64,000 nucleotides of DNA, taken from a virus (lineage: Duplodnaviria > Caudoviricetes). The position numbers and the translations under genes were made by a program. This document shows, piece by piece, positions 36,425 to 44,617 of this stretch. Where the stretch lies: positions 224,001-288,000 of the IMG/VR virus record IMGVR_UViG_3300002835_000001. One strand, 5' to 3'. How positions within the stretch are numbered: the first letter of the stretch is position 1; each line of letters starts with the position of its first letter. Below the pieces are notes generated by a model. The model was not told where the DNA came from. It ran no database searches and was given only the letters and a program-made list of their open reading frames with translations.

Positions 36425-36496
36425 GCTGATTTAGCTCAGAGGCAGAGCACGAAGCTGTTAACTTCGGGGTCCGGATATCGTAATTCTGAATCAGCG
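36425..36496 (+). tRNA. tRNA-Asn(GUU), atypical T-loop
   Basis: GCTGATT/AATCAGC; CGAAG-CTGTTAA-CTTCG; T-loop reads ATCGTAA. Confidence 0.8.
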
Positions 36497-37982: not shown

Positions 37983-38055
37983 GGGATTGAGGTCAAACGG
38001 TTAAGATGTCGCCCTGTCACGGCGCACGGAGCGGGTTCAACTCCCGTCAGTCCCG
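37983..38055 (+). tRNA. tRNA-Asp(GUC)
   Basis: GGGATTG/CAGTCCC; CGCC-CTGTCAC-GGCG. Confidence 0.88.
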
Positions 38056-40271: not shown

Positions 40272-40520
40272 ATGGATATATTATCATTTATTTTAGGAAT
40301 GTCAATAGTTGTGGTTATCGCAGTTGCGGTAGTTGCGGTTATTGCCTTTGTTAAGGTTAATAAAACTAACAAAGAAATTGAAACGATTCATACCATTATG
40401 GGTAATGAATCCGAAAGGTCGCATAGAGAGCGTGAAGAAGCAATTCAAAATGTTTATAGAACATTAGATTCACGACTTGATAAACTTGAGAGTAAAATTA
40501 CAACAAGCCGTAAGGCATAA
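40272..40520 (+). CDS. Single-TM coiled-coil protein; probable start 40272
   Basis: MDILSFILGMSIVVVIAVAVVAVIAF TM; flanked by inverted repeats. Confidence 0.7.
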   Translation: MDILSFILGMSIVVVIAVAVVAVIAFVKVNKTNKEIETIHTIMGNESERSHREREEAIQNVYRTLDSRLDKLESKITTSRKA

Positions 40521-40560
40521 CGATTAAATAAAAACTTTCAAAGACGATAGTGTTATTTTT

Positions 40561-40634
40561 GGTTCCGTAGCTCAGTTGGATAGAGCAACATCCTTCTAAG
40601 ATGTGGGTCTTTGGTTCGAATCCAAACGGGATCA
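40561..40634 (+). tRNA. tRNA-Arg(UCU)
   Basis: GGTTCCG/CGGGATC; ACATC-CTTCTAA-GATGT. Confidence 0.93.
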
Positions 40635-40687
40635 CGTAATCATTGAAAAAAACGATATCAGATTTTATCGTTAGATTAAACGATAAT

Positions 40688-40761
40688 GGACTTGTAGCTC
40701 ACTAGGTTAGAGCGGCACACTCATAATGTGAAGGTAATAGGTTCGATTCCTATCTGGTCCA
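40688..40761 (+). tRNA. tRNA(CAU): Ile2 or elongator Met
   Basis: GGACTTG/CTGGTCC; CACA-CTCATAA-TGTG; identity not resolvable by eye. Confidence 0.8.
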
Positions 40762-40888
40762 CTATTTAAAGTATGGGATTCCGATGGAAGTCCGCAAGAA
40801 AAATAGATGTTTTTCATCCATCAAAAAATCATCATAGAGGCCGCTAAATCGAGTTAGTGAAAATCTACATTCTCTGTGATGATCATAT

Positions 40889-41039
40889 TGTAGTGTGACG
40901 AAATTGGCAAACGTGCCCTCCTGTCTCGGGGGCGTGGATAAAGAAATAGATTGATAATATTAGGGGGTAGACCACCAGCTTGCAAGCGTCATGTTATCAA
41001 TCGAATCTCCACTTGGTGGTTCGAATCCATCCACTACAG
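40889..41039 (+). tRNA. Non-canonical tRNA-like RNA with GUC loop and 82-nt variable arm
   Basis: TGTAGTG/CACTACA acceptor, G73; Leu/Ser-type D arm; CCCTC-CTGTCTC-GGGGG; GGTGG-TTCGAAT-CCATC T arm. Confidence 0.75.
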
Positions 41040-41095
41040 CTTTTTATAAATAAATTTTGTTTTGTCAATTTTATTTCTTATATTTTATTATAAAC

Positions 41096-41329
41096 ATGGA
41101 AAATATGAAATGTATTAAATTAATTAAAGCAAGTAAAGGTCACGAAATTGGTCAAATTTTAAGAGTAAACGATGATGAGGCAGATTTAAGAGTAAAAGGT
41201 GGTTATTGGTCATTTGCACCAAAGACCGAATATAAACTTTATAAGAATCCTGACTACAAAACAAAGAAGACATCTGAGAAAGTATCTTCTAAAAAAACCT
41301 TGAAAAAAAATAAAGTAGAAAATAATTAA
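41096..41329 (+). CDS. Small basic hypothetical protein
   Basis: Probable start MENMKC; Lys-rich tail. Confidence 0.55.
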   Translation: MENMKCIKLIKASKGHEIGQILRVNDDEADLRVKGGYWSFAPKTEYKLYKNPDYKTKKTSEKVSSKKTLKKNKVENN

Positions 41330-41336
41330 AAAATAT

Positions 41337-41417
41337 TTTGTTTTTTCAAAAAGTATTCGTATATTTGTAAAAGAAATCAGATAGATGGTTTCTAAAAACA
41401 AGAAATAGTTCTTTGAA
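41337..41417 (+). promoter_or_regulatory. Full Bacteroidota-type promoter plus boxA-like element before the large RNA
   Basis: TTTG 41337-41340, 19-nt spacer, TATATTTG 41360-41367; AGTTCTTTGAA 41407-41417. Confidence 0.75.
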
Positions 41418-41426
41418 TTAAAAATA

Positions 41427-42222
41427 TTGGCCGCCTATGGTCAACAAAATAAACCACGAAAGTGGGATAAAGTGATTTGGTTTGGTTAAATCAAGTTGCG
41501 GTTTCAGCAATGGAACTTGAGTAGGCAAACAGAATATCGTTGAACCTTAATTACCGAGGGTAACACTGTAGGGAAAGTGGTTTAATGACTAAGCAATCCG
41601 AGTTGTTTGGTTGAGGTGGGAACACCAATAAGAATAATCTGTAGAGTTATTACAAGAAGTAGGACGTCCAATCTTACAATTGTGTGACTCAATATGATGG
41701 GAATCTTAAAACCGAAAGGTATGGTGAAGTACGAGTGGTGTCGTTATCATCCTTAATTGAACTCTACCAAGGGTTTAGTTTTGAAGGGGTCCAAAAATAT
41801 GGTAGCAGGGATGTTACAGAGAGTAGTTTAGTATCGAGTTGTTCAAAAGATAACTTGGCTGGCAGACGAGCCACTACTTTCCAAATTCGGAACCAATAAC
41901 AATTGTTAATTACGGTTTAACAACTCAAACAACAAGGAAAAGTGCTCGTCAGTCGTTGGAGACAGGTGACTACACAGTCGAGAGAGGTTCTCGGCCACAA
42001 AGGGTCCAAACCCAATGTGATTTTTAAGAAAGTTCTCTAAGTTCGCAAGACTTAGTCGGGGTGGCAACCTCGAAGAGTAATGAGTATTAAAAGAGTATCT
42101 AACGACTTAAGGATTGGTTAATCTAATTGACCGTCGCTGATTGGTACTACTCAAAAGGTAGTGGATAAGAGAAGAAAAGATAATGTCTCTAAAGTCAATC
42201 GTTAAATGGTGTAATCTCAGCC
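41427..42222 (+). ncRNA. Large ornate ncRNA, GOLLD-like (~800 nt)
   Basis: No credible ORF, GC-richer than the flanks, GNRA hairpins, several long-range 7-bp pairings, beside a tRNA array, own promoter; family call from size, context and recalled 3' motifs. Confidence 0.72.
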
Positions 42223-42358
42223 TTTTCTTTTTTTAATTTTGTGTAAAATTAAATGGTGGAATCTAACGATATTAAAAACCGTTCGGCCCTAAAAAATTAG
42301 TCATAAGAAATTATGGCTTTTTTTGTGCTTTTAATAAAATTTTACTTATATTTGTTTT

Positions 42359-44211: not shown

Positions 44212-44617
44212 GGGGATGCTTGGAATTGATTTCAGGTATCAGGGGTAAATGGCACGTAGTCAGACTTCATCTATGACTTAAATCTATGGTGGAAAATTTT
44301 AGACGGCAACGTTTATAAAAACATGGAAATTGCAGGTTTACTTGCAACTTCTAACGTAGAAGTAGCCTAAGGCAAAACTACAATCGGGTCGATGTACATA
44401 TAACCTAGGAACAGAAGTACTCAAGGTGTAATACCACCCAAAGATGTATTAGGAGTCTCGTTCAGGGGTCTACTCCAACACAAGTGAACCCGACACAGTT
44501 ATTGGTAACGATGTCAAAATAGGAACCAATTATTTGTCTGTTGTGAACTAACAGAATAAACGTGTAGTCATTTATTGTTGAACCGGGAAGACCGGAGTTC
44601 GAGTCTCCGCATCTCCA
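44212..44617 (+). ncRNA. ssrA: tmRNA
   Basis: GGGGATG/CATCTCC acceptor with G3-U70, A73; TTCGAGT T-loop; tag ORF 44305-44370; adjacent smpB. Confidence 0.93.

Follow-up and report, generated by a model that had tools for sequence, protein, structure and literature searches.

A tRNA-shaped RNA in a phage tRNA island

The 64,000-nucleotide (nt) stretch of DNA analysed here, which we call the window, covers positions 224,001 to 288,000 of IMG/VR virus record IMGVR_UViG_3300002835_000001. It is a tailed-phage fragment with genes for the major head protein, the portal, and the large terminase, and it carries an island of 15 transfer RNAs (tRNAs), a GOLLD RNA, and a transfer-messenger RNA (tmRNA) at 44212. 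Read directly from the sequence, the plus strand at 40889-41039 contains a 151-nt element: a complete cloverleaf in which a branched domain of 79 nt takes the place of the variable arm (Table 1). We find that this element is a working gene for a tRNA-shaped RNA, structured and under selection, and that it is a member of a large family common to lake phages and to the chromosomes of Cytophagales and some other Bacteroidota.

The initial annotation of the window had described a 7-base-pair (bp) acceptor stem, G73, a Leu/Ser-type D arm, a T arm, a CUGUCUC loop with U37, and a variable region with a GTGGA/TCCAC closing helix and a 12-bp helix, and the sequence reads as described. The bases that make the tertiary contacts of a cloverleaf (U8, A14, G18 G19, and the T loop UUCGAAU) are present, and the minimum-free-energy fold recovers the cloverleaf, with an energy z-score of only -2.05 that is weak support by itself. 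CCA is not encoded in the element, as is the case in the phage's other tRNAs; C74 is encoded, and a pyrimidine stands at position -1. In its 3′ context the element is like the phage's real tRNAs, which fits processing by tRNA maturation enzymes.

Table 1 Features of the element and of its surroundings in the window. A1 is the alignment of 67 unique phage sequences described in the text; U in place of T where RNA is given.
Feature	Position	Strand	Remarks
Acceptor stem, 5′ strand UGUAGUG	40889-40895	+	7 bp with CACUACA 41032-41038; 100% of cells paired
U8 G9, D arm, G26	40896-40915	+	3-bp stem ACG/CGU; 11-nt loop AAAUUGGCAAA holding A14 and G18 G19; class II type
Anticodon-like arm	40916-40932	+	5-bp stem CCCUC/GGGGG; loop CUGUCUC 40921-40927
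Variable-arm domain	40934-41012	+	P1 GUGGA/UCCAC (40934-40938/41008-41012); internal loop; P2; branched cap
Conserved internal loop	40940-40949 and 41003-41007	+	AAAGAAAUAG and GAAUC; block (with UGAAUC) conserved in A1
P2	40949-40960 with 40991-41002	+	12-bp helix; two small hairpins as cap
Hairpin A, GGGGUAGACCACC	40964-40976	+	Near-invariant in phages: 1 of 67 unique sequences with C at base 2
Hairpin B, GCUUGCAAGC	40978-40987	+	Self-complementary in the window copy
T arm	41015-41031	+	GGUGG/CCAUC; canonical loop UUCGAAU; T loop conserved
Acceptor stem, 3′ strand CACUACA, with G73 and C74	41032-41040	+	G73 at 41039; C74 at 41040
tRNA-Asp(GUC)	37983-38055	+	Canonical; loop CUGUCAC
GOLLD RNA	41427-42223	+	About 390 nt downstream of the element; 3′ half 41819-42223 matches Rfam RF02032, 316 bits; context only

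The annotation had named ARAGORN as a check; the default run gave no call, and relaxed settings returned only a forced, poor tRNA-Lys with a 56-nt intron and three of five pairs in the anticodon stem. Within a 1.1-kb stretch, the Rfam tRNA model did not match the element even at E values up to 10. More broadly, no Rfam 15 family matched the phage or cellular copies at its gathering score or at E values up to 10, and a blastn search of INPHARED with the element gave no match.

The normal tRNA-Asp(GUC) that had been reported at 37983 is indeed a canonical tRNA-Asp with an Rfam match. It is the second of two tRNAs, at 36425-36496 and 37983-38055, that match Rfam (47 and 50 bits) and were missed by ARAGORN. 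A tRNA-Asp and the element coexist in three phage genomes (the window and the loci labelled L089 and L046). Since the phage has a canonical tRNA-Asp(GUC), the long RNA is not its Asp decoder.

Homologues and covariation in lake phages

Exact-pattern scans recovered homologues of the same architecture at 124 or more IMG/VR contigs or loci of lake phages, and reduction of the IMG/VR matches gave an alignment (A1) of 67 unique phage sequences of 147-175 nt. The proposed structure leaves 97.3% of the cells of A1 paired, compared with 41-57% when the partners are slid; 28 of the 44 pairs have changes on both sides, and none of 500 shuffles reached any of five measures, so that chance is very far from explaining the structure. 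Every helix that varies has compensatory changes, which were seen in 5 of 7 pairs of the acceptor stem, 2 of 3 of the D stem, 5 of 5 of the anticodon stem, 3 of 5 of P1, 8 of 12 of P2, 2 of 3 of hairpin B, and 3 of 5 of the T stem. Conservation of the arm among homologues, which the annotation had named as a check, is thus borne out by covariation in both P1 and P2. Within the acceptor stem, U1, G2, and U3 are conserved and positions 4-7 covary with 66-69.

Relatives differ from the window copy in several details. The D loop of many has an extra hairpin inserted, and the T stem of some contains one bulged base. In one large phage lineage of A1 (e.g. L089:1341-1510 and L095:7889-8058), the loop of the D-loop hairpin contains UGUCUC, the same hexamer as in the anticodon-like loop, and this recurrence suggests that the motif itself is a ligand for something.

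The two hairpins of the cap behave differently. Hairpin A reads GGGUUGACCAC in many cellular copies, and because it hardly varies its stem lies beyond the covariation test. Hairpin B is self-complementary in 65 of the 67 unique phage copies, in the five forms GCUUGCAAGC, GCCGGCCGGC, GCUGGCCAGC, GCAUGCAUGC, and ACUGCAGU, and the other two copies have one non-complementary position each (GU or GA); such a sequence may allow loop-loop or duplex pairing between two molecules.

One alternative pairing was rejected. The ACCACCA of hairpin A could pair in the window with UGGUGGU, the 5′ strand of the T stem, but this does not hold across relatives, as the T-stem strand varies (GAAGG, GAUGG, AUAGG, and others) and ACCACCA is constant. 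The sequences of the internal loop do not seem to fit the consensus of the kink-turn or the sarcin-ricin motif. Also dropped were matches that the scan patterns gave by chance, in genomes rich in GC and in a coding region of a phage (L101, L119, L121, L123, L126, L154-156, L161, L165, L168, L172, L173, and L175), and two weak model matches were left uncounted: L164:2563-2723, an ordinary tRNA plus leader, and L046:5443-5605, which is element-like in its 5′ half only. The latter has the acceptor strand, a D arm with a hairpin, and the start of an anticodon arm before it diverges; it looks truncated and lies about 550 nt from an intact copy.

RNA-library contigs and the fate of the insert

We compared contigs from lake metatranscriptomes with positions 40500-42300 of the window. 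In one run, the variable domain of a close variant was covered by a contig at a depth of about 70, compared with 22-63 for tRNA bins and 0 for the neighbouring open reading frame (ORF); this variant lacks 3 nt at 40960, as do many relatives. Two further RNA runs contain at least half of the element's sampled words and were not used as evidence. GOLLD contigs reached depths in the thousands in four lake metatranscriptome runs, versus tens for the adjoining tRNAs. No joint removing the arm was seen in the metatranscriptome contigs, in which cover of the element is sparse. Assembled RNA-library contigs cannot show ends, prove transcription, or exclude a processed form; as weak evidence, they agree with a stable RNA that keeps its arm.

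These observations bear on the proposals, both raised in the initial annotation, that the 79-82-nt insert is a non-canonical intron whose removal would let the phage ligase join the tRNA halves, or that a random insertion has left a dead tRNA gene. Relaxed ARAGORN can indeed force a 56-nt intron model on the element, although with a poor anticodon stem. Blocks of the insert, however, are conserved in sequence, and its paired bases change in a compensatory way; it also occurs in bacterial chromosomes (see below) and is included in the RNA-library contig, with no joint across it in the sparse cover. It sits at the variable-arm position and not at 37/38, matches no intron family in Rfam, and on removal would leave a class II core with U37 and without an arm. 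The same conservation, covariation, and chromosomal copies rule out a pseudogene with a random insertion, and we regard this whole class of explanation as extremely improbable.

Chromosomal copies in Bacteroidota

A pattern scan of one genome per prokaryotic species located the motif in the genomes of nine Runella species representatives, among them isolates and a complete chromosome of 8.2 Mb. Two genomes of Spirosomataceae and one of Saprospiraceae also have it, as do short contigs that look phage-like and were binned with Flavobacterium, Flectobacillus, Algoriphagus, and a Bacteroidia genome. In Runella the RNA measures 161 nt; it shares the cloverleaf, the CUGUCUC loop, and the GGGGUAGACCACC hairpin, but the order of its cap hairpins differs. 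Its setting is syntenic: genes for AccA, a beta-CASP RNase, and an AsnC-like regulator lie to one side of it, and a gene for a DUF819 membrane protein lies to the other. The flanking genes are 73-83% identical between species, and the RNA is nearly invariant except for a few internal-loop bases. In the 15 nt before the RNA, the Runella loci (L152, L159, L171, and others) carry AGTTCTTT(T)ATAC directly at the 5′ end.

To cover more distant copies, we built a covariance model (R1) from A1 and accepted genome matches at E 1e-8 or better. R1 scored the window copy at 170 bits, cellular copies at 70-114 bits, and ordinary class II tRNAs at 20-40 bits. In an even sample of Cytophagales, the order holding Runella, 107 of 151 genomes had matches, with lengths of 98-175 nt. 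A phylum-wide even sample gave matches in 17 of 151 genomes, 13 of them at 70 bits or more; of the remainder, one weak match, 188 nt long, scored 46 bits, and three of about 85 nt (45-49 bits) look like ordinary class II tRNAs. These genome sets are samples, in which "not found" does not mean absent. ARAGORN and Rfam called none of the cellular copies.

Copies in Cytophagales often stand in tandem arrays of up to six, spaced at about 190 nt. Arrays of six copies stand at L198 (G072:C1:3545330-3546434), L197, and G120, with two arm types in one array, in 155-nt and 143-nt units, on near-identical tRNA bodies.

An alignment of 34 distinct cellular copies (A2), which was fitted to the model, is 89.8% paired versus 45-54% with partners slid, and 31 pairs show compensatory changes. 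The base of the arm and the internal loop are kept in cellular copies, and the outer part is a plain hairpin in the simplest case and a three-way junction in the most elaborate. We are highly confident that this is a functional, host-related RNA family, and the phage copy is most likely derived from a host gene.

The outer arm differs strongly between lineages and between neighbours in one array while the body is unchanged. This pattern speaks for a rival explanation in which the tRNA body would serve only as a scaffold that gives folding, RNase P and 3′-end processing, and stability, and the arm would be the active part, as a binding module, a base-pairing regulator, or a dimerising unit, with no aminoacylation involved. 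The near-invariance of hairpin A and the nearly constant self-complementarity of hairpin B across its five sequences in phage copies point in the same direction, as does the arraying of copies like tRNA operons. A pure scaffold, however, needs no invariant U1-A72, G2-C71, and G73 and no C-N-N-U-C-Y-C loop, and in some cellular members the arm is only a short plain hairpin (113-123 nt in total) and the acceptor end and loop are still invariant. We therefore hold this explanation to be possible but unlikely.

The chromosomal copies also bear on a role in defence that could be proposed for the phage copy, which would mimic tRNA-Asp and soak up or block a host anticodon nuclease or other tRNA-targeting defence, with the pyrimidine at position 37 making it a poor substrate. 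Its loop differs from that of the phage's own tRNA-Asp at position 37 only, and there is precedent in phages that counter tRNA-cleaving defences with their own tRNAs, according to two reports (PMC11555353, PMC13096335). Such a decoy leaves unexplained that the same RNA and loop form a conserved host chromosomal gene beside a regulator gene, and it needs neither the conserved acceptor end nor the large arm. We consider it improbable.

Invariant positions and decoding ability

The positions U1-A72, G2-C71, G73, C74, C32, U35, C36, and C38 are invariant in all phage and cellular copies, with U1-A72, G73, and C74 each found in all 67 phage copies and all 35 cellular ones. U3-A70 is invariant in the cellular copies and is C-G in four phage copies, and the sequence of the anticodon stem is almost invariant in phages and cells. 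The features that underlie the tRNA L-shape and end processing are all kept by the family.

The anticodon-like loop follows the consensus C32-N-N-U35-C36-Y37-C38. Among the 67 phage loops, CUGUCUC occurs 58 times, CAGUCCC four times, CCGUCUC three times, and CUGUCCC twice; among 34 cellular loops, 26 are CUGUCUC and the rest are CUCUCUC, CGGUCUC, CAUUCUC, and CUUUCUC. All 101 distinct copies have U or C, never a purine, at position 37. Phage copies have U, A, or C at position 33 and cellular copies U, G, or A, and position 34 is G in all phage copies and G, C, or U in cells. U33 is universal in decoding tRNAs. The lack of a conserved U33, the constant pyrimidine at 37, and the variable position 34 together make it unlikely that the RNA is an ordinary decoder, in agreement with the proposal in the initial annotation of a non-decoding tRNA-shaped RNA.

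An unusual decoder would be a class II-shaped tRNA, charged by the seryl- or aspartyl-tRNA synthetase (SerRS or AspRS), that reads GAY codons for regulated missense incorporation or as a spare Asp supply. The complete cloverleaf, the long arm, G73, and G2-C71 are compatible with this, the last three being features shared with tRNA-Ser, and the allo-tRNAs include GUC anticodons on Ser-type bodies (PMC5389517). The element nevertheless never has a Ser anticodon, and the 11-24 pair, for which bacterial tRNA-Ser has C-G, is C-G in 46 and U-A in 21 of the 67 phage copies. Bacterial Ser identity lists C72 (PMC9976931), where the element has A72. The loop evidence given above stands against decoding in general, the arm is several times longer than that of any decoding tRNA, and a normal tRNA-Asp lies alongside. 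A canonical tRNA-Asp has a variable loop of 4-5 nt and G1-C72, where the element has its 79-nt arm and U1-A72. We judge a decoding function very unlikely. With respect to the Ser-charged Asp reader suggested in the initial annotation in particular, the A72 conflicts with Ser identity, and the loop bases that SerRS ignores are invariant. Of the interpretations offered there, the functional, tRNA-shaped non-decoder is therefore retained, and the intron, the pseudogene, and the Ser-charged Asp reader are not.

An adjacent AsnC-like regulator gene

Examination of 14-kb neighbourhoods revealed a gene of the Lrp/AsnC family (155-180 amino acids) directly upstream of the RNA, divergent and about 110-150 nt away, in 14 of 21 genomes. 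The best NCBIfam model for this regulator by a wide margin is AsnC, at 157-162 bits, with other Lrp models at 45-83 bits. In the phylum sample, a regulator orthologue of at least 53% identity is present in each of the 13 genomes where the RNA match is strong, and it is adjacent and divergent in nine of the 13. Such an orthologue occurs in 16 genomes of this sample; 13 of them carry the RNA, one gave the weak 46-bit match, and two gave no match. The RNA was found in none of the 135 sampled genomes without it.

Shared ancestry contributes to this co-occurrence. The wider neighbourhoods of the regulator-RNA pair, however, fall into seven or more distinct contexts (the suf operon, beta-CASP/accA, transporters, and others), and that the two genes adjoin again and again in such varied surroundings speaks for a functional link, which most simply would be control of the RNA's promoter by the regulator.

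Genomic setting in the phages

In the lineage of the window, the element lies 0.4-1.7 kb upstream of GOLLD, with the tmRNA also nearby, and is a separate gene, with an ORF between it and GOLLD. The 5′ half of the GOLLD RNA in the window (41427-41818) falls outside the Rfam model, yet it is conserved in 17 related loci. As a possible obligatory partner of the element, GOLLD is found within the examined stretch at only about 18 of 124 element loci and at none of 14 divergent loci; at the genome level it is present in two of four element-bearing records, both of them the more complete ones. No GOLLD was found within about 4 kb of the cellular copies at ten chromosomal loci.

No conserved protein neighbour of the element was found in the phages, where the neighbours are lineage-specific (a metallophosphatase, a glycosyltransferase, an RNase H-like protein, and unknowns). 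At about 39 loci (e.g. L095, L110, and L116), a conserved, non-coding-looking stretch that begins with UUAGGUUGACUGGAAUGG lies downstream of the element, and the 111-amino-acid ORF called there may be spurious.

Other unusual RNA genes occur in these phages. About 460 nt upstream of the element copy of contig L035 (727-877) lies an odd tRNA-like gene of 120 nt (L035:145-264) with A73, a Leu-like D arm, an irregular anticodon arm, a variable arm of about 43 nt, and a score of 34 bits with the Rfam tRNA model; these phages may thus carry more than one family of enlarged tRNA-like RNAs. On another element-bearing phage contig, a group I intron (L004:9094-9363; Rfam Intron_gpI, 101 bits) interrupts a tRNA.

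A proposed role and possible partners

Taken together, we consider the element to be probably a non-decoding tRNA mimic of host origin that is carried in phage tRNA islands. The RNA would present tRNA-like ends to tRNA-binding proteins instead of reading codons, its transcription in the host would probably be set by the adjacent AsnC-like, amino-acid-sensing regulator, and the copy in the phage tRNA island would act on the same host pathway.

The identity elements of the RNA allow candidate partners to be named. In bacteria, the strong Asp determinants are G73, G34, U35, C36, and C38, joined by G2-C71, G1-C72, and G10; U1-A72 lets the amidotransferase accept Asp-tRNA(Asn), whereas G1-C72 blocks that step in tRNA-Asp (PMC9976931). 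For GatCAB, U20a in the D loop is an antideterminant. Of the Asp determinants, the phage copies have G73, G34, U35, C36, C38, and G2-C71; they lack G1-C72, and position 10 varies. The U1-A72 pair of the GatCAB type, which makes the acceptor end of the element one of the Asn/Gln type, is present in all phage and cellular rows, and the tRNA-Asn of phage and host has U1-A72 and G73 as the element does. Furthermore, gatB is present in 106 of the 107 RNA-positive Cytophagales genomes. The combination of Asp determinants, U1-A72/G73, gatB, and the AsnC-like neighbour suggests charging with Asp, followed by amidation, on an off-ribosome carrier. AspRS and GatCAB are accordingly the best-fitting partners we can name, though as a specific route theirs is a tentative proposal that we rate as unlikely.

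In its fullest form, this proposal would make the family a dedicated non-ribosomal aminoacyl carrier or sensor: AspRS would load Asp by way of the Asp-type loop, GatCAB would convert it to Asn by way of the Asn-type U1-A72, the arm and the pyrimidine at 37 would bar the RNA from the ribosome, the AsnC-like regulator would adjust how much of the RNA is made to the amino-acid or nitrogen status, and in an infected cell the phage copy would override the host circuit. We hold this complete scheme to be doubtful.

Several observations weigh against the roles proposed here. Class II synthetases face the variable-loop side of the tRNA, and an arm of 80 nt might hinder AspRS. G1-C72, which is crucial for bacterial Asp identity (PMC9976931), is replaced by an invariant U1-A72. 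G34 gives way to C or U in 5 of 34 cellular copies. Small or incomplete genomes, as well as shared ancestry, confound the association with gatB. The asparaginyl-tRNA synthetase (AsnRS) was found in five of five and AsnB in four of five RNA-positive genomes checked, so that there is no obvious need for a tRNA-dependent route to Asn. We also rejected the idea that the element replaces asnA: AsnA is present in 11 of 151 genomes, 8 of these 11 also carry the RNA, and there is no anticorrelation. Lastly, the AsnC scores of the regulator lie below the equivalog cut-off of 227 bits, and the AsnC-like gene was absent from the two phage records searched.

Significance and comparison with known systems

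The family occurs in about 70% of the sampled genomes of one bacterial order and is invisible to standard annotation of tRNAs and non-coding RNAs, and it is therefore probably missing from many annotated genomes. Cultured Runella species with a single, almost invariant copy offer a tractable system. The RNA provides a natural example of cargo inserted in a tRNA frame and may newly connect tRNA-handling enzymes, the sensing of amino acids, and takeover by phages, and it gives a clue that the hosts of these phages are Cytophagales or related Bacteroidota.

Known RNAs resemble the element in part. The nematode nev-tRNAs (Hamashima et al. 2016, cited in PMC5389517) are reportedly class II-shaped tRNAs with the anticodon of a class I amino acid; that combination is common to both, and the eukaryotic host, the normal arm length, and the regular anticodon loop are differences. 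The tRNA-like domains of the Y RNA YrlA and of tmRNA consist of a T arm, D-loop contacts, and an acceptor-like stem joined to another module, and have no anticodon arm. In these RNAs the module exits on the anticodon side or at the ends, whereas the element keeps all four arms and has its module at the variable-arm position; the Rfam models for YrlA and tmRNA did not match it.

A parallel in anticodon and arm may be drawn with the allo-tRNAs (Mukai et al. 2017, PMC5389517), which have a long variable arm, G73, and non-Ser anticodons that include GUC, occur in metagenomes and phages, and were proposed to have regulatory or missense roles. The long variable arm, G73, and a GUC anticodon on a body other than the cognate one are shared. 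Allo-tRNAs differ in having 8/4 or 9/3 acceptor/T stems and an ordinary arm length and in occurring in Clostridia, Proteobacteria, and Acidobacteria (PMC5389517), in contrast to the 7/5 body of the element, its arm of 30-100 nt with a conserved internal loop, its lack of a conserved U33 or a purine at 37, and its distribution in Bacteroidota and their phages. The tRNA-Other of Bacillus cereus is a pseudo-tRNA outside normal decoding that is conditionally expressed and non-canonically charged (PMC5389517); it too is a tRNA-like small RNA, but it has no sequence relation to the element and no large arm and belongs to a different phylum. tRNAs linked to or embedded in GOLLD RNA are likewise known from phage tRNA islands (10.1101/2024.12.08.627333), a setting that the element shares, although it is a separate gene and many of its loci have no GOLLD within reach.

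We found no description of such an RNA in the literature searched, in Rfam 15, or in INPHARED, and no compared system has its sequence, its 7/5 body with a conserved arm base and internal loop, its loop consensus, or its taxonomic range. Non-coding RNAs that resemble tRNAs are already known; what is unusual in this family is the combination of four complete arms with a structured variable-arm domain, its breadth, its arrays, its link to a regulator, and its uptake by phages.

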